Assembly (NCBI RefSeq): GCF_030028105.1
Contig: NC_092373.1
Coordinates: 178,661,556-178,725,555, forward strand
Length of the DNA: 64,000 nucleotides
Source of the DNA: Mobula birostris
Lineage: Eukaryota
Reading direction: 5' to 3'
Shown: positions 21,651 through 64,000 of the stretch, piece by piece
Position numbering within the stretch: position 1 is the stretch's first letter
Layout of the letters: every line of letters begins with the position of its first letter
The notes under the pieces: model-generated
Databases searched by the model: none
What the model was told of the DNA's origin: nothing
What the model saw: only the letters and a program-made list of their open reading frames with translations
Translations under genes and position numbers: made by a program

Positions 21651-21770
21651 ACGGAGGATTTTTTTTGCAATTAAGTTTTGACATAAACTTTGCAAGTAGG
21701 TACATAATGTTCCTTTACTAATATGCATGTTCCTATTGTCAATCTTCCTTTACTATTTTTTTTCTTGCAG

Positions 21771-23029: not shown

Positions 23030-23420
23030 CAATTGATTGGAAGCCTCCCATCTTGTGATTTGAACTAGCCTTAAAATTTTTAACACTTTCCCTACGTTGC
23101 ATCAAATTCCATCACCTTTGTGCTTGCTGATGTATATTCACTTCAGATTACTTTCATTCTTACTTCTACATCCCTCTTCACCTCTATCTCTGTAACCATC
23201 TTACACCATGCAACCCTCCAAAATCTCTCTGCTTCAAAAGCTCTGACCATGAATTTCCTTGTTCCACTGTTTACGGCTTTCCCTTCAGCTGTGTAGCCTA
23301 TAAGATTTAGAATTTCCTCAACATATCTGTTGCTACCTCTCCTGCTTTCTCTCTAATCTTTATCACACTGCTTCCTCCTTACCTCCTTGGTTAAATTTCA
23401 AATCACCTGCCCTAAACACA
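23030..23420 (+). mobile_element. Decayed L2-like LINE 3' end
   Basis: ccttcagctg...gaatttcctc...tacctcctt...tcacctgccctaa pattern typical of L2 3' ends. Confidence 0.4.
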
Positions 23421-24221
23421 AGAAAGTCTTCAGATGCTGAAAATCCAAAGCAACACATACGCAAAATGCTGGAGGAACTCAGCAGGTCAGACAACATCTA
23501 TGGAAATAAACATTTCAGGCAAAACCCTTCTTCAGGACTGGGGAAAAAAGGGGTAGACACTGAATAAAAAGGTGGGGGGGAGGGGAAGGAAGATAACTAG
23601 AAGGTGATAGGTGAAGCCAGGTGGGTAGGTGAGCTGGAGAGGAATTAGCTGTCCTAACATCTACTCAAGATGTTTTAAAACACCTTAGGAATATATTATG
23701 GGTTGAAATTTGGTATTGTTTTATTAATGTTACAAATATCAAGATACAGTGAAAACCATCAATTTTTCTCTGTTTCTTACATTTCTGATGGTTTCTTGCA
23801 ACTTGCTCTCTTGATCTGTATGTATACTGTTCATACAGATCAAATTGAGATAAAATAAGGTAAAACAATAATAATATAGAATAAAGTGTAAAAACTACCA
23901 AAAAGTGCATAAAAAGGTGATAAACACAGTAGAAGCATAGGAAGCTGGATGGGTTTCAACTTATTGCAACTTTGACCAGACTGATTTAAATGATTTAAAC
24001 CTGCATACTTGTTCAAAAAATGTATTGCTTTTTATCCAGCTTTGCAACCAGTAGAGTTTTGTTTAATGGTTTCTGAAACAGTAACAGATTAGAGGATGGT
24101 TTTCTCAAAGGAGGCCATATTTGTCTTAGAAAGTGTTGAGGCACTGCTGCCGTAGCTGAAAAGGGAAATGTGAAGTGGATTGTGCTTTTATATGAAAGCT
24201 TGAGTATGTCACATTAAGACT

Positions 24222-25086
24222 TGTTACGTACCCCGTAACTGGGTTGCCAAACCAGCAGAAATGGATCACTCAGTTGGAGTCTGGATTACTAGAACTAAAG
24301 AAGTTTTATTAAAGAAACAAGCAACACAATAATCAAAAGGATAATAAATGCTACAGTTCAGCAATGATAAACACACATGTGCACAGAATTAAGATAACAG
24401 GATCAATCAAGCTCCATCGTTGTCTAGGGGTAAATGACCAATTTCAAAGTGACACAAAGTCCAGTTCAATTTAGTTCAGTTCGCAGTAATCGTTGCCATG
24501 GTGATGGACAACGTGGGGGGAGGGAGAGAGAACAAGAACGAATGATCATTCGAAACGGCTTCCACACACAGACCTGCGATATTGCTCACAAGCAGCTTTC
24601 GGGCGAGTCCTTTGTGATGTCACCTGAGGTCACCGACTGTGACCCCTCCTCCAGATGCGGTCGATCCTCTGCAGTGAACCCGGCACCCAAGCAAGGGCGG
24701 ACACACACCAGGTTCCTGCTGATCGTACCTTTCCACCCTGTGCGTTTATGGCCCGGTACTTCCCACCGACTTGTGAGAGGCGCACCGCTTCCAGGGTCTC
24801 ATTACCTCGGGGTGTCGTGTGTGTGTCCCTGCCTTAGCGAACCTGTCCCTTTTTATCCCCCTGCTGGGGTATTGCCCGTCCATCACTTCAAACAGTTCAG
24901 GGTTCAAAGGGGGAGCCGATCTTGAGAATACCCAGACTGATGGCTCCTTAATTAACACCTCCAAATGCTGCTTCATTGTGTGCCTCATCTCTCCCTCCCC
25001 TGAGAACAGGTGGCAGACTAACTGCTGATGCCACTGGTGCTAGCCCAGGCCAGCAAACATCTTAATTTATGTGTATTCTCGTCACA
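24222..25086 (-). mobile_element. Solo LTR (865 bp) in TMEM129 intron 3
   Basis: TGTTACG...CGTCACA termini and a perfect 4-bp target-site duplication GACT (24218-24221, 25087-25090). On the minus strand there is a GATAAAA TATA-like box (~24850) and AATAAA (~24305). CpG-rich relative to its flanks. Confidence 0.85.
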
Positions 25087-28070
25087 GACTATCTAAATTA
25101 TTGTTTAAAAATTGCTTCACACCCCTTATCCCACTTTTTTCCATAAATTTATAATCCCTTGGAAATCTGTAATCCTTGTCATTGATTATAAGAGTTGGAA
25201 TCAGGTCAACAAAAGAAATAAAAACCGAAGTAGTCCACATAGTCATACAATTTATTAAGGTCATCCATTTTCCAGTTTGATCTGTCATATCCCTAGGTAC
25301 TCTTTTTGTCAAAAATCTATTAATTGTAGCCTTGAATGTGATAAATCCTGTCAGAACCTTTTGTCTACTTTATGAAAAGCTGTTTGGAAAATACAGATTT
25401 ACTACATCTATTAGTTTTCTATCATAAACCTTGCTGCTTGTATCCTTGAAACTCCATCAGATGCCTCATGCCCAATCACATTATGTTCTGTATTGAACAG
25501 CTTCTTATCAATAGTAGATCGCAGCATTTTCCTGAAAATGTGTCTCAAGCTAACTGGCTGCTAATTCCCTATTTTCTCTTGGCTTTGTTTTCTTATATAT
25601 CATGACTTTTTTCATAAAGAGTGGAATTTTGGAAGAGCATTCCTAATGTATTCATCATCTCTGAGGGGATTGCTTTTACAATCCTAAAGTGCTCAGATTG
25701 GAGTTGTATAGTCCAGTTCTATTCTGCACAATCATCAGGAAAAGAATATAATTGATATTATAAGAGAGTAAGTGTGTATTTTGCAGCTTGGCATGGAAGT
25801 GAATATTAAAGCTATGCTCTCAAGTTTGTAAACCCTTTCACTCTGCTTCAGATTTGAGTATAATGAAGATTAAAGGCATGTACAGATGAGGGAGGCCATT
25901 TATTAAATCTAACATGTTTCCATAGAAATTTGCAGTTTGTTTCCCATGCCCAAGCATAATCATTGCTTCCATCTGCCATTGATAAGTTGCTGTCTTCACT
26001 TTGAAAACTCTTTCAGAAATTAATCTTTCTTGGAAAGGAACATCCTGTCATTAATACTGAATTTTCTTTTATTTAGTTTGTGTTTATGTCCTGATATCTA
26101 GCAGACACAATTACAAGAAATTAAACTTGTTCCAGGTTAACGAGCCAGAATTTCACAGTTAAATAACAGCATTTGAAGTTTATAAACAAAGAAATCACAT
26201 CACAGTCTTGTGATACAAAAGAGAAACCATATGAATTGTAATTGCACAAATCATTTGGCAATTTGTGATAATAAGGCATTATTGTGATTGCTCTTGCAGA
26301 AAATTGATTCAGCATTTGTGTTTTATGAAACTTCTTCATTTCTATACTAATTGCCAATTAAACTCAATGTAATGTAATGCCTGTTCTTAATGTAAAAGCT
26401 CTTTCAATGGGGATATTTATTTTTTCGCATTGCCATTCAATATTCCAGTGGAGTCTCATTTTTGCAGGTAATGAGTTGTTCATGGAAATTTATAACCATT
26501 CAAAACAGGAACGTTTCCTCTCTTTCCCTCTGTCCAATCCCTGATTCTTTCTTTATTTTTGTATTCAACTTGGAGCCATAGAAATATTACAATAGGAAGG
26601 AATCCAGAAAGAACTACCCTTCCTAACCCAATCCTCAAGTACACACTTGACTCTGATTCATTTTCCCACAGTCCATAAAAACTGACATTCACCAAGATCC
26701 CAGTAGCATTGTTACTCTCTTTATTGGCTTGTGCTTCATGGAATTTCTAACATGAAAATTTGTGCTGAAAGAGGAGGTGAATTACTTCCTTTGTCACAGA
26801 TGTGGAGGTTGATCACTTTGATTGCTTTAGGATTAAAATGACTACTGAATTGTGTTTGACCATGAAGTACAACCATACATTGGCTATCTGTATTCAGTCA
26901 TGTGAAATCCAGCACAAATCTGTCAGCTCAGAATCAGATTTACTATCGCTCATATGACATGAAATTTGTTGTTTTGCAGTAGCAGTACAGTGCAGAGACA
27001 TAAAATTACTCTAAATTGCAAAAGTAATAGTGCAAAAAAAAGAAATAACAAGGTAGTAAATCATAAGCACAACAAATTCTGCAGCTGCTGGCAATCTTGA
27101 GCAATGCACACAAGATGCTTGAGGAAATCAGCAAGTCAGGCAGCATCCATGGAGGGGAATAAAGAGTCAACATTTTCAGCTGAGACACTTCATCAAGACT
27201 AGAAAAAAAGAAGGAAGAAGCCAGAATAAGAAGGGGGGAGGGGGAGTGGGAAGGAGTATAAGCTGGCAGGTAATGTGTGAATCCAGGTGAGGGGGAAGGT
27301 TGGTGGGGAGGGCAGTATGTCTTTAGAAGATTTGGATTTCTTTTGGGGAAATTGGACTAGAAAAATGGTAAGTACTTCATCTGAGTAAAAGGAATCAGTA
27401 AATTGTTGTGCTGTAATGAGCAATCCATGTACCAGCCCCAGAAGAAACCAAAATGGATAATATTGGGGAAAATCAAAGAATTGATCATTTGTTTTGTGAA
27501 TGAGCTGTCAAACCTCTTGAACTGGGCATAAAAGAGCCATGGAAGTGTTTGAAGGAGAGGAGGAGTATTTAAAAGAAACACATTAAAGCCAACACCTTCC
27601 AGTAGATTTCAAATTAGCGTCCATGGGAATGTGGTGTGACCAAGTTCTGTGTTGCATTACAGATCATATTCCACTTCAAAATAGGAATCTATTCCTGTTT
27701 ATCACTTGTGAAAACTGTTATAACAGAAGCTATGTGAATAGAAAGTTGTTTTATTGCTTAAAAAAAGGATAGGTTTTCAGATTTCATTAACAAAAGATAG
27801 AATATAAATTTAAGTCATAGCTTACGTGACAATAATTCAATTCCACAATGGTGCTGTCACTGTTTCATCAAATCAAAAATAACATTGATCTTGAAGACAT
27901 AGTTATACTGGTAAGTAGGGCAGAGTTGGTAATATTGTTTGAAGAATTGTATAATACCAAGAACTTTGTAAGTTAACTGAATCACAATTGTTCTCCAAGA
28001 ATCTTTTAGAGGTGGCTGATAGAGATATTATCTAATTTTCTTTTAACTGCACACTGTTTCTTTAAAACAG

Positions 28071-28319
28071 GAACTGGAGCCATGCATTGGCTGCATGCAG
28101 ACAGCTGCTAATATCAAACTTGTCAAAGTCTGTATGGACCCAAATGAGGGTGAATGTCAACAGTGCTACTGTCGTCCTATGTGGTGTCTGACCTGCATGG
28201 GGAAATGGTTTGCCAGCCGCCAAGATCAGCAGCATCCAGAAACGTGGCTTTCAAATCGGGTGCCTTGCCCTACTTGTCGATCAAAGTTCTGCATTCTTGA
28301 TATCTCTGTTGTTAGCTAA
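28071..28319 (+). CDS. TMEM129: TMEM129 coding exon 4 (C-terminal Cys-rich RING domain, stop)
   Basis: ELEPCIGCMQ...CQQCYCRPMWCLTCMGKWFASRQD...PCPTCRSKFCILD. The four exons sum to 1086 nt, i.e. 361 aa plus stop, with no frame break. Confidence 0.96.
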   Translation, partial: ELEPCIGCMQTAANIKLVKVCMDPNEGECQQCYCRPMWCLTCMGKWFASRQDQQHPETWLSNRVPCPTCRSKFCILDISVVS

Positions 28320-45352: not shown

Positions 45353-45437
45353 ATGGAGCTGAGTTCCTCCAGTCTCTACAGTAAACTTCTACCCTTAATT
45401 CAACTCATGCTTCTTCTATCTTGCACGGCTATTGCAG
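45353..45437 (+). CDS. Signal-peptide (leader) exon of the Ig-superfamily receptor
   Basis: MELSSSSLYSKLLPLIQLMLLLSCTAIA has a hydrophobic core and an A-x-A end, followed by a consensus phase-1 donor CAG|gtaaga. The phase matches the V exon at 60312; the link between the two is inferred. Confidence 0.65.
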
Positions 45438-46956
45438 GTAAGAATGCAGTTGATTTCAATATTTTTAGATTGTGGATTTTTAAAAATTACTGATAATACC
45501 AATGATCATTGGTTGCTGGTACCTTTGATTTAAGGAGGAACATCTCAAGTAGGCTTAAGCAGAAGGTTTAGATCTGTAATGTTACATTCAAATAAAAACT
45601 AAATGTTAGGGATAATCCACAGTTAATGCAGTATCGGTGGATAGAGTAACAGTCTACTGGAGGAACTCAGCAGCTTCTGCTGAGGAAAAAATAAATGTTG
45701 ATGTTTTGGCTTGAAACTTTGCATCAAGTTTTTCCCCTTCACCCCAACAAATGTTGCTCAAGCCTAGCAGATTGTTTTTTTTTGCTCCAGGTTCCAGTCA
45801 GTCCCTTGTGTCTCTATAGATTTCAGGTCAATGATCCTTTATCAAACTTGGAACATAGAGAAAGTAAACATATTCTATGTCATAGAGAAGACGAACAATG
45901 GAGAACAAAGTAAATGCCCCGACAAAGGGAGCAGGAAGGGTTTTTAAAGACCTGCTGAATATCACCATATTTTGTTTTAATTTACAGTTTTCAGCATCTG
46001 CAGTTTTATCTGAATTTGTGCTACATTTCAAAACTGCTCATTAGGCTTCAAGTTATGTTTGATGGGCAAATGGAAACATCATATTTGGCTACATGATGAA
46101 CTGTGGACACGTATAGAATTGACCATCCCATAAATAGAGTTCTGGTTTTGATGCACGAACGTTCCAGTTCATCAAATATGCAAATAATTTTATATTAACA
46201 GGTGGTGGATTTTTAGTTACCATATTATTCATTTTCAGGACGTCGGCCATGCACTCAAGGCCAACATTTATTGCCGTACTTAATTCAGTATTTCTCCCCT
46301 CTTGAGTCTTTTATTTTTGACACGTGCCAAGGTACAACAAAAAACTTGCATTGCATACTATCCATACAGATCAATTCTTTAAAATGCTACATTGAGGTAG
46401 TACAAGGTAAAACAATAACAAGATGCAGAATAAAGTGTTAGAGTACAGAGAAAGCACAGTGCAGACAGATGGTAAGGTGCAAGATACATTGTGGGATTAA
46501 GAGTCCATTTTATTGTACTGGAGAAACACTCAGTAGTCTTATAATGGCAGAACAGAGGCTGTCCCTGAGCCTGGTGGTACATGCTTCCAGGCTTTTGTAT
46601 CTTCTGCCCGATGGGAGAGGGAAGAAGAGAGAATGCTCAGTGTCTTTGATTATGTTGGCTCCTTACTGAGGCAGAAGTACAGACTGAATCCATAGAGGAG
46701 AGGCTGCAGAAAAGAGTGCATAAAAGATTTACAAGGACATTGCCAGGACTCAAAGGACTGGGTTTTTGAGATGATCAACAATCTAAGACGTTATTCATTG
46801 TGCAGAGGAAAAAGGATGGGTGATCATAGGTATAAAAAACCATGAGGGGGCATATATAAGGGTGAATGTGCAGTCTGAGAGGAAGTCGTTCAGTCTGGTA
46901 CCTTTGCAACATTTATAAGGCATATCCACAGATGCATGAATAGAGAAGATTTAGAG

Positions 46957-47036
46957 CAGGGGTACCCAACCTTTTTTAAGCCATGGATCCCTACCATTAA
47001 CCGAGGGGTCTGTGGATCCCAAGTTGGGAGCCCCTG
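46957..47036. mobile_element. 80-bp hAT/Charlie-like MITE
   Basis: TIRs CAGGGGTACCCAAC / GTTGGGAGCCCCTG; degenerate 8-bp flanks atttagag/gttcagag; inverted homologue of 33578-33657. Confidence 0.75.
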
Positions 47037-47599
47037 GTTCAGAGGGATATGGGCCATTTTCAGACAAATGGAACCAGCTTAGATGGGCATCTTGTTTGAC
47101 GTGAATGATTGGGACCGAAGAGCCTGGTTCAGTGCTGCATGACTCTACGAGCAGCCTTGTTGAACTGCTGCAAATCTGGTGAGGATTGTGGATTTGAGGG
47201 CTGCTGTTCAAGTATCACGGGAAAGTAACTGAAGCGCATGTTGCACCTGGAAGAAAAAACGGCAACTGATGTGCTCTCCGGTGGAAGGACTAGATGGTTA
47301 GTTGTTGCGAGTGGAATGCCCACCTAGTGGTCTGTGTATCCTGCCTGACGTTGAGCTCCCTCATATAGGCAGTTGGAGGATATTCTACCCCACTCCTGAA
47401 ATGTGTCTGCAGATTGTGGAGAGAAATTAGATTTTCTACCCACTTTGAACTGCTCAAGGAGCCGTAGTTTTTATTTGGCCGGTTCAGCTAAGTTACCAGC
47501 CCCCTAGAGCTGAAGGTTGTGAGCACAGTGATAGAGATCTTCTGAAAACCAATCAGATATAATAGCAAAGAAATACAGACAGCCTCAAAAATTTTTATA

Positions 47600-49510
47600 C
47601 GGTATATAAAGTTCAATACAGATACATTTTCTTTTTGCACCAAAATAGGGACATCAGTACTTGCTGATGTCAATCTGACTGGCAAGAGAGTGAAGCAAGT
47701 CAGAATGAGTGAGTACAGTACTAAATTTGTAACTTTTAGATAGTCAGTTTACAATCCAAAACTAGGGAAATGAATCTAAACAAGGGAGATTATGTAGGAG
47801 TGAGACGTGAGTTGCAATGCTAGGTTGTGGAGTTTCATTAAAAGGCATGATATTTGATGGGTAATAGGTGACATTTAAAGCAGAAGTACAGGAACAGTGA
47901 CTGTTATAATTCCATCCTTGACTAACCTTAAAATGCACAAGGATACATAACCCAACTTTGGCTAATATTAGCTACAAATTGTATTAGATCCAGTGAAGAG
48001 TAGTTTTGCCAGACTAAGTTGCAAACCTAAGTATTGGAAGTAGTTTAGGTTTCAGCTAAGTGAAAAAAATAATTAAAAGGGCACAAGTAGGCACTGAGAG
48101 TATACTTGCAGAGAACATAAAAGTAGACTCTAACAGTTCCTCCAGGTATCTAAAAAGAGAAAGTCAAAATGATGTCAAACATAAATCGCCAATAAAAATG
48201 GGAGAATTCGTCATAGGAATTGATGGATGAATTAAATGGTTCCACTTTGACAGAGGAGAATACAAGTAAACCCACAAAAATGTTAAGGAACCAGGAATCT
48301 AATGAAATTGGAGGATTAAGAACAAAAAGGAAAGAAACAGTGCTGATGAAATTAATGGCACCCAATAGATCCCCAGGACGTGATCACTTGCAACCTAGAA
48401 GACTGAAGGTAACCATTAGAAACAGTGGATGCAGTAGTAATCATTTCCAGAGTTCTATAGTTTCAGCACATTGAAAAATGGCAAAAGTAACTGGTGGATA
48501 TTGCAGGGATCAGTGTTTGGGCATCAGTCATTCATAATATTTATCAATGATTTAGATGAGGAAGAGAATGTAATATTACAACTTTTGCTACTGCCCTTAA
48601 ACGTAAGTGGGATTATAAATTGCGAGGAGGATGCAAGGGGTTTCAAGGCAAATTGGATAGACTGAGTTAATGGGCAAGGACATGGTGGATGTGGTATAAA
48701 GTGGATAAATATGAAGTTAGCCACATTGGTAATAATACAATGCAGGTACATCGTATTATTTAAAGTGTTATAGTGGGAAGCATTGATGTAGATATCCTTG
48801 ACGATGAGCCACCAAAACAGATCTCATGGCAGGCAGTTAAGAAGGCAAGTCTTTTATGACTTTCATAATGGAAGGATTTGAATATTGGAGTAAAGATGTC
48901 TTGGTACAATCATAAATTCCTTGGTGATACCACAAATGGAATATTGTGAACAGTTTTAGTCTCCTGAACCACATACAATAAATAATATATAAGCCATTGA
49001 GAGAGAACTAGAATGATTCTGAGAATGGTAGAACTGTCATACAAGGATAGATTTTATTCACCACAACTTAGAAAACATGAGAGGACAACTAAATAAACAT
49101 TCAATACTTGCAGGCAATAATAATTGGGCATCTAAAGGATTTTTCCCCTGGCTGGCACACCTAGAATGAGAGGTCACAATGTCAGGTACAGTGCAAAAGA
49201 TTTAGTACTGAGCTGAGGAAGAGACCTCTCCTGAAGAAGGGTCTCAGCACAGAATGTTGACTGTTTATTAATTTCCATGGATGCTGTCTGACCTGTTGAG
49301 TTCCTCCAGCATTTTGGGTGTTGCTGAGGAGACTTTTCACCCAGAGGGCGGTGAGCTGTGGAATTCACTGCCACCAGGCTTACTGGGATCGAGCCTCAAT
49401 TTTATTTTAGAATGAAATAGATATGTTTGCGGATGCAAAAAACATCATGGAGTATCGGTATCAGGAGAGAAGAGGACTGTGGTACTGAAATAGATGATAA
49501 ACACAGCTGG
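47600..49510 (+). mobile_element. Highly decayed CR1 LINE with a Penelope terminus inserted at ~49225-49325
   Basis: QGSVFG, FINDLDE and SPGxD remnants. The inserted ctgaagaagggtctc...gatgctgtctgacctgttgagttcctccagc block splits the NFFTQR-coding segment. Confidence 0.6.
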
Positions 49511-49799
49511 TACTGTTCTATATTCTATGTCTTCAGCACTACAGCAAGCATGTTGCCTGGTCCAGATATTTTCAACTATGCCTTGATATCTCGTACAGAG
49601 AACCAAGTTGGTCAAAGCAAGGCTTCTGTGATGGCGAGATATCAGGGGGAAGTCGAAACGGGTTACCTATTCAGCACACCTGGCTGGAAATGGTTGCAAA
49701 TGCTTCAGCCCTTCCCTTGATCGTTATAATCATTCAGCACGTGGACAGTTTTCTCCTGCTTGTTGTCTATTTGTCTAACACACCTCAAAATATGATTTG

Positions 49800-51260
49800 G
49801 CACATAGAACACAGAACAGGTACAGTGATGTTGTGTCAAACTAATTCAATTTGTAATAAAAAGCCCAACAAAAGTAATCAGTCTGCACAACGTCCATATC
49901 CTTCCATTTCCCACAGATTCACATGCCCGTCCAAGAACGCCTATATTGCACTTGACTCCACCACGACCTGTGGCAGCTTACTCCAGGAAACAACCACTCT
50001 TACATTAAATGAATGCTCACTGGAATAAGACCTTTCAACCCTGGAAAAAAGATAGCAGCTATCTATTCTCCCCGTGCCTCTCAGACCTCCCCTCTGTCTC
50101 CACTGCTCCAGAGAAAACAACCCAGGTTTATCTAACATCTCCTTATAGCAGATGCCCTCTAATCCAGATAGTATCCTGGTAAAATTTTACTGCACCCTCT
50201 CCAAAGCCTTGACATTCTTCCTATAATGACACAACCAGAATTCAATACAATACCCCAGATGCAGCCTAACACGTGTTTTGTAAAGGTGCAACATAATTTC
50301 CCGACTCTTGAACTCAGTTCCTCGACTAATAAAGGCAAGGATACCAAGTGCTTTCTTTACACCTTATCGACATGCAGCCACTCTCAAGAAGCTATAGACT
50401 TGAACACCAAGATCCTTCTGCACGTCAGCACTGTTAAGGGCCCTGTCATTAACAGAACACTATACCTTTACATTTGATCTCCCAAAGTGCATAACCTCAT
50501 AGTTGGACTGATTAAATTCCATCTGCCATTTCTCCACCTATATCCTGCTGTGTTCTTTGCTGGTCATCTATGTTATCCACAACACCACCAATCCTTGCAT
50601 CACCTTCATTGACTGGTAATAAAACAAACAGCTTAGGACCCTGTACAGATCCCTGCAGAACACCATGAGTCATGGAGCTCCAGACCAATACGCTCTTTCT
50701 TCTATTGGCAAGCCAAGTGGCCTAAGCACCTCAGATCCCATGCATCTTAATCTTCTGGCTGAGCCTCCCATGAGGGAACTTGTCAAATACCTTACTAAAA
50801 CCCATGTAGGCAATATCCACAGTTCTACCTTCATCCATTACCCTTGTCAAAAACTCAGTTAATTTAGTCAGACATGACATTTAGTCATGCCCTGCACAGT
50901 GCCACACTGACTGTCCTAGTTATGTTTTCCAAATGCTTAGATCATATTCCTAAGAATCATTGCCATTAACTTTCCTTGAACTGACTTGAAACTTACCAGT
51001 AAATAGTTTCTAGGATTATACCTATTTCACATTGGCTACTTGCCAGTTCTTCTGGATCTGGTCTGTGGCTAGACAAGAGAAGACACAAAGTTATCGGTCA
51101 AGGTCACAGCAATCTTATCCCTGCCTCTCTCAACAGCTTGAGATATATCCCATTGGGTTCTGGGGACTTAACCACCTTAATGTTCTTTAAGAGATTAAAC
51201 ACTACCTCCTCCTTTAGCTCAATATACCCGAACATCATCTTATACTCCACCTCCATGTGT
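49800..51260 (-). mobile_element. Decayed CR1 LINE
   Basis: The reverse complement carries CR1 RT and 3' motifs homologous to 33972-35500. Confidence 0.75.
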
Positions 51261-51514
51261 GCAGATGCTTGATCTGATCCATTGTATGATTGTTTAGTCC
51301 TCTTTGTTGCATGCTGCTTTTGATGTTTAGTGTTCCTATGGTTCTGCTCATGTGTCTAAATGTTGCCTTGAGTTCTTAATTACCGGCTGTTAGTCAATTC
51401 TCCTAACTCACCGAAACCTCACAGTGGGTGTTCATCTTCTGTTCTTAGAATTTTCACATGTACATCTTGACCTTCCAGCACCTCAGTGGAGATCAGTCAT
51501 GATGATAGTAAGGT

Positions 51515-52733
51515 CCTACATAGGAGGCTGGTCAAGAAGGTTCAGTCGCTTGTCATTCAATATGAGGTAGTAAATTGGATTAGACATTGGTTTTGTGGGA
51601 GAAGCCAGAGAGTGGTGGAAAAAGGTTGCCTTTCTGAAGACCTGTGACTAGTGGAATACCACAGGGATTGGTGCTGGGTCCTTTGTTGTTTGTCTTCCAT
51701 ATCAATGATCTGGATGATAATGTGGTTAACTGGATCAGCAAAATTGCTGATGACACCAAGACTGGGGGTTTAGTGGACAGCAAGAAAGAATATCGTGGTT
51801 TGCAGCCAGATCTGGACCAGCTAGGAATATGGGCTGAAGAATAACAGATGGAATTTTATGCAGACAAGTGTGAGGTGTTACACTTCAGTGGGACCAACCA
51901 GGGTAGGTTTTACACACAGGAGTGCTGTACAACAAAGGGATCTGGGAATACAGGTCCATAGTTCATTGAAAGTGGCATCACAGATAGGTGGGGTCATAAA
52001 GAAAGCTTTTGGCACATTGGCCTTCATAAATCCAAGTACTGAGTGCAGAAGATGGGATGTCACGTTGATGTCTAAGACGTTGGTGAGGCCTGATTTGGAG
52101 TATTGTGTGCAGTTTTGGTCACCTACCTATGGAAAGGATGTAAATTAGTTTGAAAGAGTACAAAGAAAATTTACAAGAATGTTGCCGGGACTGGAGTACC
52201 TGAGTTATAAGGAAAGATTAAATAGGCTAGGACTTTATTCCTTGGAACGTAAAAGATTGAGAGGAGATTTGATAGAGGTTTACAAAATTATAAGGGTTGT
52301 AGAAGGCGTAAATGTAAGTGGAGTGTTTCCACTGAGGTTAGGTGGAACTACAACCAGAAGCTATCAGATAACATTGATCATCCACATATTTTCAGTTTAC
52401 CCTAGACAAGAAAGTATGGATTAGGAACATTGCCTGATTTGTGATATCTCCCTTATTGCCTATGATTGTTAATTGAAATGAATGATGAATAATTAATCAT
52501 GGGTTAAGGGTGAAAGGTGAAAAGTTTAAGGGGAACATGAGGGGAAACTTTTTCACTCAGGGGGTCATGAGAGTGTGGAACAAGCTGCCAGCACAGGTGA
52601 TGCATACGAGCTTGATTTCAACATTTAAGAGAAGTTTGGATAGGTACGTGGCTGCTAGAGGTATGGGGAGTGGGGGGGGAGGGGCTATGTTCCCAGTGCG
52701 GATCAATGGGAGTAGGCAGTTTGGCACAGACTA
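51515..52733 (+). mobile_element. CR1 LINE interrupted by a locally templated insert
   Basis: SGIPQGLVLGPLLF, KIADDTK, RPDLEYCVQFWSP and NFFTQ motifs; non-CR1 block at 52358-52499. Confidence 0.85.
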
Positions 52734-53294
52734 AACCCACTTGAAGAACAACAGTCCGTTCTACACAGAGCAGTGGTAAAATATAACTTCCATGCAAGGC
52801 AGACGACAATTTTCTTAGAAAAATACAGCATAGAAACATGCCCTTCAGCCCTTTTCTATGAATCTATATAAGAAATATATCTGTTATAGTGTTTTTTTCC
52901 AGTGGGGAACTAAATGCTATAATTAGAAGTAAAGACGTGTGTTCGTAAATGCAGAGGTAAGTGTTTCTATTTATAGGACTGACCAAGAAACGTATCGTCT
53001 GTGCACAATTGCCTTGCATGGAAGTTATATTTTATCATTGATCTGTGCAGAACAGAGTGTGGTTTTTCAAGTGGGTTGTTTGGAAAGTTTGTCATGGAAA
53101 CCAATACTACAAAGTTTTTCAAGGTTAAATTCCGTTACTTGTTTCATGATGTGTTGATTAATTATTTATCATTCATTTCAATTAACTATCAGGCAATAAG
53201 GGAGATATCACAAATCAGGCAATGTTCCTGATCCATACTTTCTTGTCTAGAGTAAACTGAAAATATGTGGATGATCAATGTTAACTGATAGCTT
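52358..53294. repeat. Nested inverted repeats (outer arms 52358-52499 / 53155-53294; inner arms 52734-52806 / 52995-53077)
   Basis: Direct reverse-complement comparison. Also visible in the ORF track as ALHGSYILPLLCVERTVVLQVG (-) versus ALHGSYILSLICAEQSVVFQVG (+). Confidence 0.9.
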
Positions 53295-54167
53295 AATAGT
53301 CATTTTTCAAAAGTGTTAGCATGTTATTTCATTGTGGCTAAATACTTTAAGCACATTAGTGCTCATTCACTCCCTTGTATCCCTTGCACTATACAACAGT
53401 AAAGCAATTTATTTCTGCAGTTTTCAACTGGTTGAAACTGCTAAAAGGAACTCAGCTCCTTCAGCTGAAGATCTGAGAAAACCTTTTGTTTCTTTATCAG
53501 TTTTTCTGTTTCACACTGTTATTTTTTCTCTTGTTCACTTGTTCTTATCCTGCTTCTTTTTGTCTACAAGTAGAGCCCATTGCCAGATTGGTCATTATTA
53601 CACATTCATTGATAACTTTGAAAACTGAGTGGGATAAAGGCTTCAAGGAGAATAAAATTGGAGGAATATGGGCAGAATAAAGCAATGGGACAAATCTTAG
53701 AAAGCAATGAAGTCAACTTAATGGACAACAGCCTCCTTGGAACCTCCCACTCTGAATCCACCGCTACCTACAAAGTTATCTCAGTATTGAAAGTGCACGT
53801 CCATTGTCAGTGACTTGGAAAGTATTTATTATAAAACTAGTGGTGCTTACAATCAAAATATTATTCCCTACATACTGTACACATGAGATTCTGCAGATGC
53901 AGAGAAACACAAGATATTGGAGGAGATCAGCAGGTCAGGCAGCATCTATGGAGAGGAGTAAGGAGCCAACAATGTTATGTTTTGTGACTTCAAAACATTA
54001 AACTAATTCAAGGGAAGACACAGGAGACCGACATGTGAGTGAGTCTAACTTCGTGTTTACTTTGAGCGAGGGGCGCACATATCACGTGTGATGATATATG
54101 CAATTCACATATTTATACATATAACTTGCAATTAATTATTTAAATGAATAAGAATGTTTAATCAAAC

Positions 54168-54247
54168 TATATATGTGTGTGTGCGTGTGTGTATGTGTGT
54201 GTATATATACACACATACACACACACACACACACATACATACACACA
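54168..54247. repeat. Compound (TG)n-(TA)n-(CA)n microsatellite
   Basis: Read directly from the sequence. Confidence 0.9.
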
Positions 54248-54248
54248 A

Positions 54249-54728
54249 AGGACTGTGAGAACAGCAGAGAAGGTCATAAGGGTCTTCCTACCATCCGTCG
54301 GGGACATTTATCAGGAGCGCTGCATATGCAGCGCCCTTTGTATTATTAAGAATCCCACCCATCCATCCAGCATCCTCTTTGACTTTCTACCATCAGGCTG
54401 GAGACAATGCTGCAAAAAAAAAATGAATGGTCAGGATGAGAAACAGTTTCTTCCCCCAGGCTATTAGGCTTCTGAGCTCCCTGCCACATCATATTTGAAG
54501 TATCACTGGTTAATCTGTTCCGTACCTTACAACACTTAATATTAATGCACTTTAGTTTGTTATTTATGTGTGATTCATCTGTAGATTTTATCCTTACCTT
54601 CATAAGTTATCATGTGTTATGTGTACTACTGCGCTTTACACTCTGGTTTGAAGAAACATTGTCTCGTTCCTATATACATTATACGGTTATATACATGTAT
54701 ATAGTTAAATGACAATAAACTTGACTTA
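54249..54728 (+). mobile_element. Rex1/Babar-type LINE 3' end
   Basis: QRTVRTAEKVI...DIYQERC...IIKNPTHP...LPSG; tail acaataaacttgactt. Confidence 0.7.
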
Positions 54729-55877
54729 GTTTATTTTTCTTTCCAATTGGAAATATATTGTACCAATTTGCATAGCTCAACTAAATCTCCCTGCAGTATA
54801 AAAAGTTCACAGCATACCTCACCCAAAGGGATCTCTCCATTTTACCTTCTATGGAGTTAACAAGTATAGCTTGGATTTATGAGTCCAGGTAATCTCTGTA
54901 CAAATGGAGTTAATGGTCGAGGGAGGGGTGCGGGGGTGGTGTGTGATGCAGATGTAAGCTTGAAGTCCATCAACAGCAAATATTTTTGATGCCGGAACTT
55001 TCTAGAGCTACTTAGTTCAACATTGATCAATTGCAATTTAATAGCCATACTATGAAAGGTACAGAATTACCGATTGCATACTGGGCAGCTGTCTCTCCTG
55101 AGAATTCTACTTCTGCTTCTTTCATGAATCTGACTGCTAAGGTGAAACTGGTATCCACCTACTCTATGCAGATGCCTGGTATCACTATTTAGACAAGTGC
55201 AGTTAAAAGTAAGATATTCTTTTTAAACCATTATGTGTATCTATTCCTTCCTATCACAACTGTTTTCCTTCCTTCTTGTGTTTAAGAGACTGAGGTCTCA
55301 CTGTGTCTGGATGCATTAAATGATCCTTCAGAATACAACCACTGATAGATTTGACCAAATTTTGCACTTGGTTTTGATCTTATTTAGCCTTTGCCTCACA
55401 TTCTCATTGTTGTTTCTGGTTACATTTCATTCAAGGCAGTTCATAAGTATATATCGTGATACAGATTAGGAGCATATTTTAACACATTATTTCTGTGCTG
55501 TTAGTCTAAATGCAATGTTGCTTAAACATTCTAATTTCTAAATAATTTCTTTTTTTAACAGATTGTACTTTGGAGTAAACTATTCAAAGATTTCACCGCC
55601 CCCTTGCATCAGAATATCAGATTCAGATTTAATTATCACATGAGAAATGCAACATTTGCATTAACAACCAACACAGCTAAGAATGTGTTTGGTTCGCATT
55701 GCAATGACCCAAATGAGTAAGTGACCTTAGTTGTTTGTGGGAGATTTTGGACGTGGTATGTGGCTAATCGGCCTTTATTTCCACGCGAGTCATCAATAAA
55801 GCCATCTGCTATCACCCTCTAAATTACTTTCCTCCCTTGATGTTTTCTTTAAGCATTCCCAGGCAGGTCGTCAAACA

Positions 55878-56208
55878 GTAGACAATAGGTGCAGGAGTAG
55901 GCCATTCAGCCCTTCAAGCCAGCACCACCATTCACTGTGATCATGGCTGATCATCCACACTCAGTACCCTTTTCCTGCCTTCTCCCCATATCCCTTCACT
56001 CCGCTATCTTTAAGAGCTCTATCTAACTCTTTTTTGAAAGAATCCAGAGAATTGGTCTCCACTGCCTTCTGAGGCAGAGCATTCCACAGAACCTCAACCC
56101 TCTGTGTGAAAAAGTTTTTCCTCAACTCCGTTCTAAATTGTCTACCCCTTATTCTTAAACTGTGGCCTCTGGTTCTGGACACCCCCAACATCGGGAGCAT
56201 GTTTCCTG
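55878..56208 (-). mobile_element. CR1 3' fragment
   Basis: SRTRGHSLRIRG...NFFTQRV..LWNALPQKAVE followed by a 3' UTR. Confidence 0.8.
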
Positions 56209-57649
56209 CCATGACAGCACTGCTCTCCAAAGTGTGTCTTAATGATTATAGAAAGTGAAAAAGAAGGCTAAAAGTGGCTAGTTCAACCCCCACCATCAAC
56301 CTCTCCCTTCTTTGACTGGTAACCCAAAAGTGAGGCTGGAGATCATCTGTTCTTTAAGCCTCCCAACAAAATAGCTGCTTTCGAATGTGGTGCATTAACC
56401 ACAATGTTTTCTTCTGTTACTATCTGCCTTCAGTTCCATTGCCAGGAGGATAACTGTGCCAAGATTACACCCTGACACGTGAATGATCAAAACTTAAATT
56501 CATCCACCTACAGCTTCAATTCAGCTAGATCTAGCAAGTGCAGTCTATAGTAGCCCACCTCACAGCAGGAGACCAGGAGGAAACTGGCTCCGTAAAGTGC
56601 TGTTCCCACCCTGAAAGGGTTAGAGTCAAGTTGAGTTTATTGTCATATGTAGGAGTACATGTATGCACAGGTGTAAAAAAAAACTTACAGCAGTAGCACA
56701 AGCACATATTATCATCCTCAACATTCACAAGAAAGAACAAAAATTGTGCAAGTAAAAATGTCTGTTGGAGTGCAAAGAGATCAAAGCGGTTACAGTTTTG
56801 CAAAGGAAAACAGTCTGCAAACAGAATGCCTGCCTTCAGCAAGCCCAGCCATACAGCATTTAGATTTGTGCAGAAATTATTAAAAGTATGTTTACTTCAT
56901 GTGAGTAACGAATACGTTCCCGACACCAGTGTTCCTGACCCTGGCTCCAGCCACATACCTGCCCCACTCCAGAGCCCATCTCTGAGCACAGATCTGTCTG
57001 TAACTTAAAACTCACCTACAAAACTCTGATGGTTACGGGACTTGGAAAGTCACACAGGTGGAACTAACACACAAGGTAGAGGTAATTTTATATCCTGAAG
57101 GACAAACATAGGAACATGAGAAATTCTGCAGATGCTGGACATCCAAAGAAACACACACACAATGCTGGAGGAACTCAGCAGGTCAGGAGGCATCCTTGGA
57201 AATGAACAAACAGTCAATGTTTCGGGCTAATACCCTTCTTTGGAACTTAAGGAAAGGTTCTGGCCCAGGTTCCTAAACCTGACCGGTCTCTAACCGCAAT
57301 TTGTTAGACACCACCAGTTCAGTCTCAGGTGGAACGTGCTACATACACCACCATTTGAAGCCTTGAAATTACCCAGATCATTATAGATAGTAAATCAGCA
57401 TACAATTAGGACTTCCTGTGTGTTTTATCACACTGCACTGTTTCAGTAGTCTGCTATTTTCTTTACTCGGAATTAGTTAATGTGTTTGCCTGGAAATTCT
57501 GGGGATGGGAACTCTCGAGAGTCTGAGCTAAAGGCTAATTAACATATTCTGTTACAGAAAGCTATTCAGCCCATCAAGTCTGTGCCAGCTCCCATTAATC
57601 CCAATGACCTCCCCCCCCCCACCCCCCACATTTCCACGTGGTTTTGTAT

Positions 57650-58125
57650 CATTCCGGGATGATTTCAGGGTTGAAAGGCTTATCCTAAGAGAAGTGTTTG
57701 ATGCACTGTGCCTTTATTAACTGGAATTTAGAAGAATCAGGAGTGACTTAATTGAAACCTATGGAATGGTGAAAAGCCTTGATAGAGTGGATGTGGAGAG
57801 GATGTTTCCGATGGTGGGAAAGTCTAAGACCAGAGGACACAGCCTCAGAATAGAGGAGCATCCTTTTAGAATGGAGATGAGGAGGAATTTCTTTAGCCAG
57901 AGTGGTGAATCTGTGGAATTTGTTGCCACAGGCAGCTATAGAGGCCAAGTCATTGGGTATATTTAAGGCAGAGATTGATAGATTCTTGATTAGTTAGGAA
58001 ATGAAGGGATATGAGGAGAAGGCAGGAGACTGGGGCTGATGGGGAAAATGGATCAGCCAGGATGAAATGGCAGAACAGACTCGATGGGCCAAGTGGCCTA
58101 ATGCTGCTCCTATATCTTTCTTATG
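57650..58125 (+). mobile_element. CR1 3' fragment
   Basis: LDRVDVERMFPMVG.S.TRGHSLRI; homologous to 19680-20140. Confidence 0.8.
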
Positions 58126-58537
58126 GTATTTCATTTCATGTTCCCATCAATTACCCGTTAATTATTTTACCATTTAGATCCAACAGACGGTCATTTACAG
58201 ATAATAATTAATACAGTTATATACCAGCACATCTCTGAGATCTCAGCAGAAACTGGATTTCCCAGAGTAAACCCATGTGGTCAGAAGGAGAACGTGCTGA
58301 TGCCTCATTGCGAGCACCCGACGTAAGGGTCGAATCTGGGTGCTTGGAGCTGCAAGGCAGCAGCATTGGTTCTCTGTCAAAACGCCATTCGGAAACCGAG
58401 CTGAGACTGCTGGTGGAGAGGTGACTGTGGTTTTATTTACAGCAGGGTGACGTTAGGATCAGAGCGACATAGCAATGTAGTGCCACATTGGGACTGTTAG
58501 ATGGAAGAAGGCCCAACAGGTTTCTTGTCCTGGAGTA

Positions 58538-59670
58538 TTTAGATTAGATTAGATCAGATTAGATTCAACATTATTGTCATTGTGTCGAGTACAGATACAA
58601 AGCCAATGAAATGCAGTTAGCATCTGACCAGAAATGCAAAGAATCGTGTTATTTACAAAATAACTACGAATAAAAAGTAAGTGCTACAGCACACAAATAT
58701 AAAAGTACTGAGACAGTACAATATGGATGCAATACTGCTTAGCGCTGTGATGTGAGGTTCAGCAGTGTTACAGCCTCAGGGAAGGAGCTCTTCCTGTGCC
58801 TGCTGGTGCAGGAGCGGAGGCTCCTGTAGCGCCTACCGGATGGGAAGGGAGTAAAAAACTTACAGCAGTAGCACAAGCACGTCCATGGTTAGGGTGAGAT
58901 GCATCCTTGATAATGCTTTTCGCCCTGCCCAGGCAGCGTTTATGGTAGATGTTCTCAATGGTGGGCAATTGGGTGCCGATAATCCTCTGGGCAGGTTTCA
59001 CCACACGTTGGAGTGCTTTACGGTCCGATATGGGACAATTGCCATACCACACTGAGATGCAGTTGGTGAGTATGCTCTCAATGGTACAGCCGTAAAAGTC
59101 CGTCGGTATCCTGGGACAGAGGTGAGCTTTCTTGATGCTCCGCAGGAAATAAAGGTGTTTTTGATCAGGATGGAGGAGTTCAGGGACCGGGTGAGATCCT
59201 CAGAAATGTAGACACGAAGGAATTTGAAGCTTGATACACATTCCACTACAGCTCCGTTGATGTAGATGGGGACGTGAGTGTGGCTCCTAGCATGCCTGAA
59301 GTCCACAATGATCTCCTTGGTCTTCTGGGTGTTAAGGGCCAGGTTGTTGTCAGCACATCACGTGGCCAGGTGCTGGACCTCGTCCCTGTAGGCCGTCTCG
59401 TCATCCCCTCTGATCAGGCCAACCACCGTGGTGTCGTCTGTAAACTTGATTATGGAGTTAGAACCATGTACAGGAATACAGTCATAGGTGAAAAGAGAGT
59501 ACAGAAGAGGGCTCGACACACAGCCTTGAGACACGCCGGTGTTCAGGGTGAGAGTGGAGGAGGAGAGGTTCTCTAACTTAACTGATTGGGGTCTGTTAGT
59601 CAGAAAGTCCAAGGTCCAATTGCAGAGGGATGAGCTGATACCAAGCTGGCGAAGTTTGGCGATCAGCTGC
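58538..59670 (-). mobile_element. Rex1/Babar-type LINE, 5'-truncated, with (AATCT)n tail
   Basis: [45 protein letters not shown] and IIKDASHPNH motifs; (agatt)n at 58540-58565. Confidence 0.9.
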
Positions 59671-59671
59671 A

Positions 59672-60232
59672 CACCTAGCTGCCATTTTCTGAGATACCTA
59701 CTGTACCTAATAAAGTGACCACTGGGTGAATGCCAATGGTCTTCTGCTACTGTAGCCCATCCACCTCAAGGTCTGATGTTTTGTGCATTCAGAGGGGCTT
59801 TTCTCCACACCACTGTTGAAACGTGTGGTCATTTGAGTTACCATCTCCTTTCTGTCAGCTTGAACCAGTCTGGCCATTCTCCTCTGACCTCTCCAATTAA
59901 CAAGGCATTTTCAACCACAGAACTGCTGCTCATTGGATGTTTTTTGTTTCTCGCTCCGTTCTCTGTAAACTCTGGAGACTATTGTGTGTGAAAATCCCAG
60001 GAGATCAGCAGTTTCTGAGATGCTCTAACCACCCTGTCTGGCACCAACAATCATTCCACGGTCAAAGACACTTAGATCACATTTTTCCCCCATTCTAATG
60101 TTTGGTCTGAACAGCAACTGAACCTCTGGACCATGTCTGCGTGCTTTTACGCATTGATATGCTGCCTCATGATTGGCTGATTAGAGAGCTGCATTAACGA
60201 GTAGGTGTACTTAACAAAGTGGCTATTGAGTG
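59672..60232 (-). mobile_element. Non-autonomous Tc1-like element, copy 3
   Basis: Homologous to 33299-33919 and 41849-42401; ends ...aaagtggctattgagtg, 79 bp before the Ig V exon. Confidence 0.8.
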
Positions 60233-60311
60233 TTTACATCCTTCAGAGAAGTGGAGATCCATAACCTAGCAACTATCCGGGTGCATGTCATCTGTCTGCT
60301 TTTATTCACAG

Positions 60312-60638
60312 ATGAAACAGCGGATTTTAAAATTATTCAGCACCCTCCAGAGGCCAATGTTTCTGTGGGCAACAATGTAGTGATGATGTGTTCCTGGGAC
60401 AGCAACCAGATTGAGAGCGTCAGAGTGAACTGGCTAAAGGACAACATCAACATTTTTTCAAACAAAACAGGAAAATACCAGTATGGAAGGACAAAGTACA
60501 TTGTTGAAATGAACAGCTCAAGCCTTACCATTCTGAGTGTCTCGCAGAATGACTCTGCAATCTACCACTGCGAGGTATTCGTGGAAATTCCATCATTCAG
60601 AAGAGCAAGGGGAGAAGGGACAATATTAAACGTCATTG
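60312..60638 (+). CDS. Ig V-set (germline VJ-type) domain exon, CD28H/TMIGD2-like receptor
   Basis: Phase 1-1 exon (ttattcacag|...G|gtaaga, 327 nt) with canonical Cys (MMC), Trp (VNWLKD), LTI, DSAIYHC and G-strand GEGTILNV. ESVRVNWLKD and YHCEVFVEIP resemble human TMIGD2 ERLRVKWTKD and YVCWAAVEIP (recalled). Four N-glycosylation sequons. Confidence 0.85.
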
Positions 60639-60789
60639 GTAAGATGATTCATTGTGCTTCTACCTTATGAATTAAATATGCACAACAGACATGTATGTTT
60701 TATCTATTATACTTGCAATTTTCCCATCCAGGCAGATTCTATTGCTATTCCGGATGGAGTCATAGAGTTACACACAGAGAAAAAAAAAT

Positions 60790-61300
60790 TGCTGAAGGAA
60801 CTCAGCAGGTCACTGGAGGGAAATGAACAGCCAACATCTTGATTTTCTACCAGGACTATAAAGAAGAAGGGCAAAAGTCAGAATAAGAAGGTGGGGAAGG
60901 GGAGGAGCAATAGCTGCAGGTGATAGGTGAATCCAGGGGAGAGGAATGGGCATAATGTGAGAAGCTGGGAGGTGATAGGTGGAGGAGGCGAAGGGCTGAA
61001 GAAGATGGAAGCTGATAGGAGCGTGTAGTGGGCAATGGAGTAAAGGAGGTAGATAACTGGAGGGAGAAAGGTGTGGGTCTTGAGGACAGGGAAGGGAAGG
61101 AGAAGGGACCAGAGGGACAAGGGAAAACTAATGGGAGGGGAACAGGTAGGTATAGCTAATGGAAGTTAGAGAAATAAATATTGATACCATCAGTTTGGAG
61201 GCTTCCAAGAGAGAATATAAAGTGTTATTCCTCTAATCTGTGTCTCACCTCAACTTGGAGTACTGCAGGCCGAGCACAGACATATTTGTATGGGAATGGG
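60790..61300 (-). mobile_element. Penelope-like element terminal fragment
   Basis: Reverse complement of the 38780-39260-type sequence (gaactcagcaggtca, purine-rich tract, ttggaggct). Confidence 0.65.
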
Positions 61301-62109
61301 AAGTGGAAGTATGAGAGATCCTGGCTGTTATGGCAGATGAAGAGATAGGGAGCAATGGAATAGAAGCAGGACCTTTGACCCCACTTGTCCATGCTGATCA
61401 AAGTGCGTAGCTGAACCGGTCCCATTTGCCTGCATTTGCTGATATGCCTCTAAAGGTTTCCTGTCCATGTACCTGTATAAAATGTCTTTTAAACATTGTA
61501 ATTGTATCCACGCTACCACTTCCTCTGGCAGCTAGTTCCATATAACCTCCACCATCTCTCTGAAAATCTTGCACTTCAGGTCCCGTTTAAATCTTTCCCC
61601 TCTCTCCTTAAACCTATGTCCTCTAGTTTAACACGCTCCTACAATGGGAAACAGAGTATGAACATTCACCTTATTAATGCCCCCAATGATTTTATAAACT
61701 AGGAATTGACCCTTCAGGCACCTACACGCCAGAAAAAAAAACAGCGCAGCATATGCAATCTCGCTTTTTTATTTAAAGTAAGGCAAAGACTCCCGAGAAA
61801 GCCAAAAATATAGTCTGTTACAAATGCACCATCGGGAAGTTTTTAATAATGCTTTAAAACCAGCAAAGTAACCAGAACAGTGTCTGGACACGTGCATCTG
61901 TGCTGTACAGGGGTTCTGTGTTGAATTAGATTCCAGGCCATTGGTATTCTACTGACCTCTGCTGGAATATTGTATAATTGCACATAGGGGGCAGTTCAAT
62001 ACAGTCTGTTAAACATCAACAGTTAAACATCCTCCAAAAACTCATTGAGCAAGGTCCTTGGTAACAACTAGCTGCAAGGAGATTCTGGAACTGTAACTCT
62101 GTATTATTT

Positions 62110-63850
62110 AGTCATAAAGTCATAGAGAAATACAGCAAGGATACAGGCCCTTCAACGCAATGAGACCATGACGATCACAGACCCCACCCAACTAGTCCCA
62201 GTGGCCTACATTTGGCCCAGATCCCTCCATACCCCTTTCCCTACCTATCCTACTTCTTTTTAAAAGATGCTGTTGTACCTGCCTCAACCACCTCGTCTGG
62301 CAGTTTGTTCCATATACTCAACACCCCCTGTGTGAAAAAAGTTACCCCTCAGGTGCCTTTGAAATCTCTCCCCTCTCATCCTAAATCAATGGACCCCTAG
62401 TTTTGGTCTCCTACGCCAGGGAAAAGACTGTTGCATCCACCTTATCTACGCCTCTCATAACTTTAAACATTTCTATAAAGTCACCCCTCATTCTCTTCAA
62501 ATATATCCAAAAAAGAATTAATACCTTTATTTTTCTAAAGTAAAAAAATTGGATCACACTTTTATTTGGAATAATAAAAGACCAAGGATTAGTAAATGTC
62601 ACTTACAAAAGTTGAAAAAGGATAGAGGTCTTGCTTTGCCTAATTTAGTAATGTATTATTGGGCTGTTAATGTCCAATACATGTCCTTTTGGTTATACTG
62701 GGTTGATAAAAACGATCAGCCAGTTTGGGTAGACCTGGAACTGAAAGCTGTGAAACAGTTTTATTTAACCTCGTTATTGGGAGTTGCTTTACCTATACAA
62801 TTAGCTAAAGTTGCTAATTTAAACCTATACCCTGTGATTAAGCACTCTTTACAAATTTGGCTCCAGTTCCGCAATTTTTTTAATCTTAAAAAAATTAAAC
62901 TTTGTAGTTTAATTTATTGAAATTATTTTTTAAACCTTCTTTGAGTGATCCAATTTTTTTGTCGCCCCTCATTCTCCCACACTTCAAGGAATAAAGACCT
63001 AGCCTGCCCAACCTCCCCCGTAACTCAGGCTCTCCAGTGCTGGCAACATCGTCATAAATCTTCTCTGCACTATTTTCAGGTTAACCACATCTTTTCTGTA
63101 ACAGTGACCTAAAGTGTGCAGAGTACTGCAAGCGTAGCCTTACTAAGAACTTAATCAACTGCAATATAACGACCTAGTTTCAATACTTGTTATTCTGACA
63201 TATGAAGACCAGCATGTTAAATTGCAATTTCACCACCGTATCTAACTGTGACGCCACTTTCAATGAACTATCCATTTGTATTCCTAAGTTCCTCTGTTCC
63301 AATGCACTCCCTTGTGCCTTATTATTTGTAACGTAAGTCCTACTCTGGTTTGACTTTCCAAAATTCATCACCTCACACTTACCTGCATTGAAATCTATTT
63401 GCCACTGCTCAGGTTCATTAATTTATCACATACAGTGAAGCGTTAAAAAAAAATTCACCACTGTGTCGAACTGTAAAGCTACTGAGAATGAACTATGTAC
63501 TCCTAGGTCCCTCTGTTCCAATAAACTCCCTAGTGCCTTATCATTCCTAGTAGAAGTCCCACACTGGTTTTACTCTGCAAAATGCATTATCTACATTTGC
63601 CTGTATTGAAATCTATTTGCCACTGCTCAGATTCATTTATTTATCACATGTACCTTGAAACATATAGAGGGACATGTCGTTTTATGATAACAACCAACAC
63701 AAGATGTGCTGGAGCAACCCACAAGTGTTCCCAACCAACCTCCTAACTCATCAAGATCCCCCTGTAATGTAAGATAATCTTCTTCTCTGTCTGCAATACC
63801 TCCTAATTTCAAGACATCTGCAAAGTGAATGATCAAGTCTTCTGCACGTG
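62110..63850 (-). mobile_element. Decayed CR1 LINE with internal insertions and a duplication
   Basis: RMRGDFIEMFKVMRGVDKVD, DSSLKVASQ and FADVLKLGG remnants on the minus strand. Confidence 0.7.
62496..62960 (+). mobile_element. Internal L1-clade ORF2 fragment inserted in the CR1 with a 16-bp duplication
   Basis: FIWNNKRPRI...GLALPNLVMYYWA is the post-RT L1 ORF2 signature. Flanks gtcacccctcattctc (62480-62495) and gtcgcccctcattctc (62961-62976). Confidence 0.85.
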
Positions 63851-64000
63851 CATCCAAAATCAAATTAATTAAAAACAGAAAACACTGGAGATACTCAATA
63901 AGGTAACCAGCATCTGTGGAAAGGCAAACAGAGTTTTAGGTTGGTAACCTATCCTGGTTCTGACAAAAAGTCGTTGGCCTGGAACATTATCTCCGATTTT

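Follow-up and report, generated by a model that had tools for sequence, protein, structure and literature searches.

The closest described system to the gene examined here is CD28HL2, which was named at the TACC3-TMEM129-SLBP locus by Quiniou et al. (2024; PMC11599192), the block around cd28hl2 consisting of slbp, tacc3, and tmem129. In that study cd28hl2 was recorded in bichir, paddlefish, gar, eel, bonefish, and lungfish, was absent in tetrapods, human included, and was not found in rays, where it seems to have been lost; the rays listed were the little skate and the thorny skate. The same study reads YxN motifs as GRB2/GADS sites, shows the tail motifs YENS and YINS for CD28HL2 (Data Sheet 4), and notes that PxP after the EIP of the FG loop is not present in every species. 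A stretch of 64,000 nucleotides from the ray Mobula birostris (contig NC_092373.1, here C5, positions 178661556-178725555; hereafter the window) was analyzed, and exons past position 64,000 were located in the 200 kb downstream and are given in continued window numbering. The window contains the beginning of a gene that is almost certainly the ray orthologue of CD28HL2. The gene and its locus are already in print under that name, and the type of system is a known one. As a whole, the observations are probably best explained by a ray CD28HL2 that is a spliced, six-exon type I membrane protein with a four-YxN tail, likely serving as a lymphocyte co-stimulatory receptor.

Two shark references of the published study, XP_041039503 (P0010) and XP_060678526 (P0012), were retrieved by profile search and are identical to the Mobula protein at 47.0% over 202 columns and 40.8% over 255 columns, respectively. 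Among the six V exons found in the Mobula genome, both score best on the exon described here (103 vs. 74.7 bits for the next exon, and 100 vs. 72.0 bits). A V-domain tree of 33 rows, for which 18 further EIP-bearing relatives were picked from 91 and three distant paralogues of the same genome were omitted, places 13 cartilaginous-fish CD28HL2 rows, both shark references included, on one side of a 99/99 branch, within which sharks and rays split; a 95-residue fragment (P0034) groups among the rays. The consensus of complementarity-determining region 3 (CDR3), Y-x-C-[polar]-xxx-E-I-P-[P/A/L/V]-[P/F/L], is matched through EIP and is then followed by S-F, owing to a one-residue FG-loop deletion that all four Mobula, Hemitrygon, and Hypanus proteins have (EIPS, with PxP missing); Pristis and Narcine read EIPPP. 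Gene order in the Mobula birostris genome, the one in which synteny was read, is TACC3(-), TMEM129(+), the CD28HL2 gene(+), SLBP(+), which agrees with the slbp, tacc3, and tmem129 linkage published for cd28hl2. Neither the kiaa0232 neighborhood of CD28HL1 nor its Y[E/D]SF motif in the tail is present. An original prediction, made from the window's letters, had proposed a CD28H-like paralogue in the TACC3-TMEM129 block; this is borne out, the gene lying between TMEM129 and SLBP, and its caveat that such paralogues may already be described proved apt. Its further claim of retention in cartilaginous fish holds for sharks and rays, yet the gene is not confined to them, since bony fishes and lungfish also carry it (PMC11599192). 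As a separate matter, Data Sheet 4 interchanges the accessions of its two shark CD28HL2 rows, and the data sheets also list XP_060678526, which NCBI assigns to LOC132805451, for epaulette CD28HL1.

The six coding exons (Table 1) encode 259 residues without a stop over a coding span of 44,208 nucleotides, and every internal border is AG/GT. An in-frame stop at 45296 lies 5' of the start codon, and the leader was assigned from hydropathy and homology. Introns 1 and 2 measure 14,874 nucleotides and 7.8 kb. A protein search returned three longer relatives, one of which, the NCBI model P0002 (XP_072112717.1, Mobula birostris, "uncharacterized"), is identical across the shared part and corresponds to residues 53-259; the three tail junctions are predicted from this model and from splice signals. 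The V exon is contained wholly or partly in seven sequencing runs from two studies, four of which were examined for junctions by matching contig ends to exon borders, X4 and X5 deriving from an organism that is related and shows 6 differences in 330. One transcript contig spans 45204-45437 and ends exactly at the leader donor. The leader is joined to the V exon (45437^60312) in three of the four runs (X1, X4, X5; both studies), the V exon continues from 60638 into the start of the transmembrane exon in all four, and a genome search gave one strong V-exon match only. That contigs bridge both introns at GT-AG borders points to spliced RNA. The original prediction had described a phase-1 leader exon followed 14.9 kb downstream by an intact phase 1-1 V-set exon, a reading with which coordinates, frames, splice signals, and Pfam agree; the junction it anticipated is present in the contigs, and the transmembrane and cytoplasmic exons that it expected past 64 kb were found. 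In spite of the leader-V splicing, the NCBI models P0002 and P0003 are without the leader, their first Met lying inside the V domain. The stretch covered by the contig starting at 45204 also includes adjacent GGAA and TGTGG words at 45232-45330, which may be ETS/RUNX-like sites, and an out-of-frame, 5-codon upstream open reading frame at 45313.

The predicted protein consists of a single immunoglobulin V (IgV) domain, a transmembrane segment, and a cytoplasmic tail, and it has the CDR3-region motif (YHCEVFVEIP..GEG) and the tail tyrosine motifs by which CD28-family members are recognized (PMC11599192). No charged residue and no dimerization motif is present in the transmembrane segment, the latter absence being shared with described CD28HL2. 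The tail is basic, 90 residues long, and carries four YxN motifs (YENS, YVNS, YKNI, YQNN) across all three tail exons; the first is that of the great white shark, and the second, with the EL that follows it, resembles the bony-fish YINS. The sturgeon tail (P0077) contains YVNN, YINN, and YQNV. All 13 models from sharks and rays keep at least one YxN (range 1 to 4), and none of the 13 has a YxxM or an ITIM (immunoreceptor tyrosine-based inhibitory motif). The great white CD28HL2 reference is truncated past its first motif, which may be the reason why the YxN pattern received too little notice. The first motif is missing from catshark isoform X2 and from two bamboo-shark models, which hints at exon skipping. 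Unlike Heptranchias and catshark isoform X1, Mobula does not have a 30-residue tail segment; a search for it in intron 3 gave scores of 27 and 31, within the control range of 23-38, and hence no remnant.

Four YxN motifs without YxxM or ITIM suggest multivalent Grb2/GADS recruitment. In the mechanism proposed here, to which we lean slightly, a B7-family ligand would bind the EIP-bearing FG loop, Src-family kinases would phosphorylate the tail tyrosines, Grb2/GADS SH2 domains would dock at several of the YxN sites, and the docked adaptors would feed Ras/MAPK-type signaling. By analogy of family and motif, co-stimulation is the likeliest job. Given that YxxM, ITIM, and a charged transmembrane residue are all missing, it is less likely that the receptor binds PI3K directly, acts by SHP-type inhibition, or pairs with adaptors that bear an immunoreceptor tyrosine-based activation motif (ITAM). 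Human TMIGD2, the tail of which includes a YSNV motif in the data-sheet alignment, activates via Tyr192, according to a review (PMC10173190). The LAT-type adaptors LAT, NTAL, and LAX have several Grb2-type tyrosine motifs per tail and bind Grb2 multivalently (PMC3291652). Cysteines at the inner membrane edge are a second likeness, the comparison being one of working and not of sequence kinship. In LAT these cysteines are palmitoylated. None of these adaptors is known to have an immunoglobulin ectodomain.

Several observations weigh against this interpretation. Two trees with fewer outgroups did not resolve the shark-ray CD28HL2 clade (approximately unbiased test, p 0.39 for the clade), and these sparser trees did not reject the grouping of rays with CD28HL1 (p 0.21). 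Bony-fish CD28HL2 V domains (P0077, P0150) fall outside the shark-ray clade on long, unplaced branches of a V-only tree. The run records name neither RNA nor tissue, the RNA status being a tool guess. Asn stands at +2 of four of the five tail tyrosines, a count reached by 27 of 100,000 tail shuffles in a test that was post hoc, having been picked after the motifs were noticed. Narcine has only 2 YxN motifs and several sharks have 3, and little functional hint was found in the CD28HL2 tail by PMC11599192. Finally, NTAL/LAB, itself a multi-YxN adaptor, can dampen signaling and in mast cells acts as a negative regulator (PMC2211846). This last point favors a different job, in which the multi-YxN tail would sequester Grb2 and so dampen the signal, or the protein would be mainly an adhesion receptor outside lymphocytes, human TMIGD2 having also been described as an adhesion molecule (review PMC10173190). 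We regard this as possible and rather doubtful: CD28H, the closest paralogue with a tested role, co-stimulates through a tail tyrosine according to the same review, and an ITIM-type motif is missing throughout the shark and ray models.

A further difference from described CD28HL2 is the cassette exon in intron 1. Runs X1 and X3 have a sequence other than the leader spliced to 60312; it maps uniquely to 55687-55716 and is followed by a GT donor. Its acceptor was placed at 55562 because the length of the X1 contig, 213, equals 28 leader, 155 cassette, and 30 V bases, with an AG acceptor at this position. Neither X4 nor X5 showed the cassette form, and the depths of the X1 contigs (14.2 vs. 18.3) do not give an isoform ratio. 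Inclusion would lead to a stop after 33 residues; the cassette also carries three ATGs in frame with the V exon, which could start a leaderless form. The middle of the cassette resembles a dispersed repeat, 39 of 40 scored genome matches being other, partial copies. The cassette was considered as the cause of the leaderless NCBI model and found unsupported, since the model starts downstream of the in-frame ATGs. That the gene is decaying or mostly silenced in rays, the cassette spoiling most transcripts, is improbable. The cassette form does occur in both organism-A runs examined and is the sole form seen in X3, P0002 and P0003 are leaderless, and no skate gene was found by PMC11599192; against this stand a reading frame open through six exons, 83% identity to Hemitrygon over 259 residues, leader-V contigs from two studies, and orthologues in six ray species. 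An extended version of the CD28HL2 reading would make the receptor a ligand-gated, LAT-like multivalent Grb2 scaffold, with its valence tuned by tyrosine-exon skipping, its manta-type output gated by a repeat-derived poison exon, and the loss of cd28hl2 among rays limited to skates at most; in this full form it is unlikely.

With CD28H/TMIGD2 the Mobula gene shares one V domain, a membrane-proximal YxN, and the RVxWxKD and VEIP motifs, both of which appear, as the original prediction had said, in the human CD28H row of Data Sheet 3 (PMC11599192). It differs in locus (CD28H lies in an fsd1/stap2 block according to PMC11599192, the Mobula gene at TMEM129/SLBP), in tail (proline-rich with one listed YxN in human, basic with four in Mobula), and in tree branch, and the ligand HHLA2/B7-H7 is known for human CD28H only. 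CD28HL1 has the EIP loop and GxG strand in common with it and is found on the same contig, 24 Mb apart, but is distinguished by a YESF tail motif, a KIAA0232/MAN2B/TBC1D14 block, and a V domain that is 36-37% identical. A CD28H or CD28HL1 that has merely changed its locus is a very improbable identity for the gene. In its favor, the gene has the EIP loop and RVxWxKD in common with CD28H, and the next best V exon of the genome (C5:154.49 Mb) is 37% identical; this exon, however, belongs to a gene with the CD28HL1 tail SSLYESF, about 140 kb from KIAA0232, and shark proteins with a CD28H-type YVNV tail, so labeled from a reading of their motifs, form a separate 100/99 branch. Tree, tail, and synteny thus refute either identity, unless a wider tree moves the Mobula gene. 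The CD28HL1 gene of the Mobula genome occupies C5:154468600-154490276 on the minus strand, with an EIP V exon and the tail sequences SSRGSSHW and LYESF. Two CD28HL1-like proteins with separate sets of accessions (P0075, P0100) occur in the great white shark, and proteins P0021 and P0026 contain EIP-type V domains in tandem.

The V exon matches Pfam V-set (E 1.3e-10) and contains both cysteines, the tryptophan, the YHCEVFVEIP loop with its VEIP, and, within the same exon, the GEGT G strand. The original prediction had pointed to this J-like strand and to the lack of a recombination heptamer, and the scans agree: no exact heptamer was found in 60000-61500, and no heptamer-spacer-nonamer signal in 57000-64000. 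The predicted V-domain structure (predicted local distance difference test score 90.4) finds its best fold match in a T-cell receptor (TCR) V domain (Z 16.8, root-mean-square deviation 2.0 over 105 residues); the nearest solved folds are TCR/antibody V domains, with PD-1 at Z 14.1 among the matches listed, a likeness that is weak for the choice of family because it is common to all V domains. A sequence search of solved structures gave generic immunoglobulin matches only, with no TMIGD2 chain among the matches listed, and does not rank the families. The single-exon VJ domain and the TCR V folds (Z 15-17) might point to an antigen-receptor V segment joined in the germline, or to a receptor that is coupled to an adaptor as NKp30 is. 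This reading is least probable of all, as there is no constant domain, no recombination signal, and no charged transmembrane residue, and the 90-residue tail has tyrosines of its own; the V-transmembrane junction refutes it.

Further single-exon V domains were noted in the same genome. At 37.29 Mb on C7, a V exon of VJ type whose loop reads EIPPP (L003:1471-1851) is followed by a C1-set exon (L003:2687-3202); the gene pairs 100/99 with great white XP_041066805, "immunoglobulin kappa light chain-like." A CD28H-type loop with a C1 domain is unlike the nine CD28 members listed, which are defined by a single V domain, and this may be a described VJ-C1 gene. The loop of L005 (C8, 10.77 Mb) resembles skate CD28X of Data Sheet 4, L004 (C27, 6.68 Mb) has a PPP loop and GNG, and L006 (C19, 17.01 Mb) is without GxG.

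Around the CD28HL2 gene, TACC C-terminal exons (PF05010) lie on the minus strand 13-16 kb before the window, at C5:178645746-178648180; of three TACC loci, this one is called TACC3 on the ground of synteny. A second SLBP-like locus is present on C8. Between TMEM129 and SLBP, only transposon-type domains were detected in the 64 (longer intergenic) of 253 non-repeat open frames of at least 55 codons, a scan that a small-exon gene could escape. A minus-strand frame at L012:836-1495 combines a SCAN domain and a zinc knuckle and is likely a retrotransposon Gag relic; Tc1-type transposase fragments occur at L011:4172-4514 and L012:9229-9799. A 298-codon reverse-transcriptase frame (34613-35509, minus strand; RVT_1 E 2.7e-37) is likely a fragment of a long interspersed nuclear element, and intron 1 is filled with repeat fragments.

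Table 1. Features of the CD28HL2 locus of Mobula birostris, in window numbering unless preceded by C5
Feature	Position	Strand	Basis or remark
Long open frame taken as large TACC3 exon	925..2103	-	Position and strand; no Pfam match
TMEM129, upstream neighbor	17861..28313	+	Four exon matches to PF10272, best E 6.4e-45
Coding exon 1: hydrophobic leader with the start codon, 85 nt	45353..45437	+	Phase 1, GT donor after 45437
Alternative cassette exon, 155 nt, partly repeat-like	55562..55716	+	3' end joined to 60312 in X1, X3; 5' border inferred
Coding exon 2: germline VJ-type IgV domain, 327 nt = 109 codons	60312..60638	+	AG acceptor, GT donor, phase 1-1
Start of intron 2	60639..64000	+	Gene continues beyond window end
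Transmembrane exon	C5:178729992-178730111 (= 68437-68556)	+	Relatives aligned to DNA; V-transmembrane join in contigs
Tail exon, YENS	C5:178737254-178737317 (= 75699-75762)	+	NCBI model P0002 and splice signals
Tail exon, YVNS	C5:178746091-178746155 (= 84536-84600)	+	NCBI model P0002 and splice signals
Last tail exon, YKNI, YQNN, stop	C5:178750997-178751115 (= 89442-89560)	+	NCBI model P0002 and splice signals
SLBP exons	C5:178787971-178790542	+	About 37 kb past the stop of the CD28HL2 gene

Orthologues are recorded in six non-skate rays, all as "uncharacterized": Mobula birostris, M. hypostoma, Hemitrygon akajei, Hypanus sabinus, Pristis pectinata, and Narcine bancroftii. These species represent three of the four ray orders. 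No skate or chimaera orthologue appeared among the named protein-search matches; only 10 of the nameless matches were looked up, so that absence from these groups is not thereby tested. The literature searched, from which subscription journals lay outside, holds no report of CD28HL2 in rays, and the term CD28HL2 itself occurs there in PMC11599192 only. The ray orthologues correct the printed claim that cd28hl2 was lost in rays, and the Mobula gene supplies a full model, backed by splicing, to set beside a truncated shark reference and a leaderless NCBI model. From the four-YxN tail comes a testable idea of how this orphan member of the CD28 family in early jawed vertebrates may signal.

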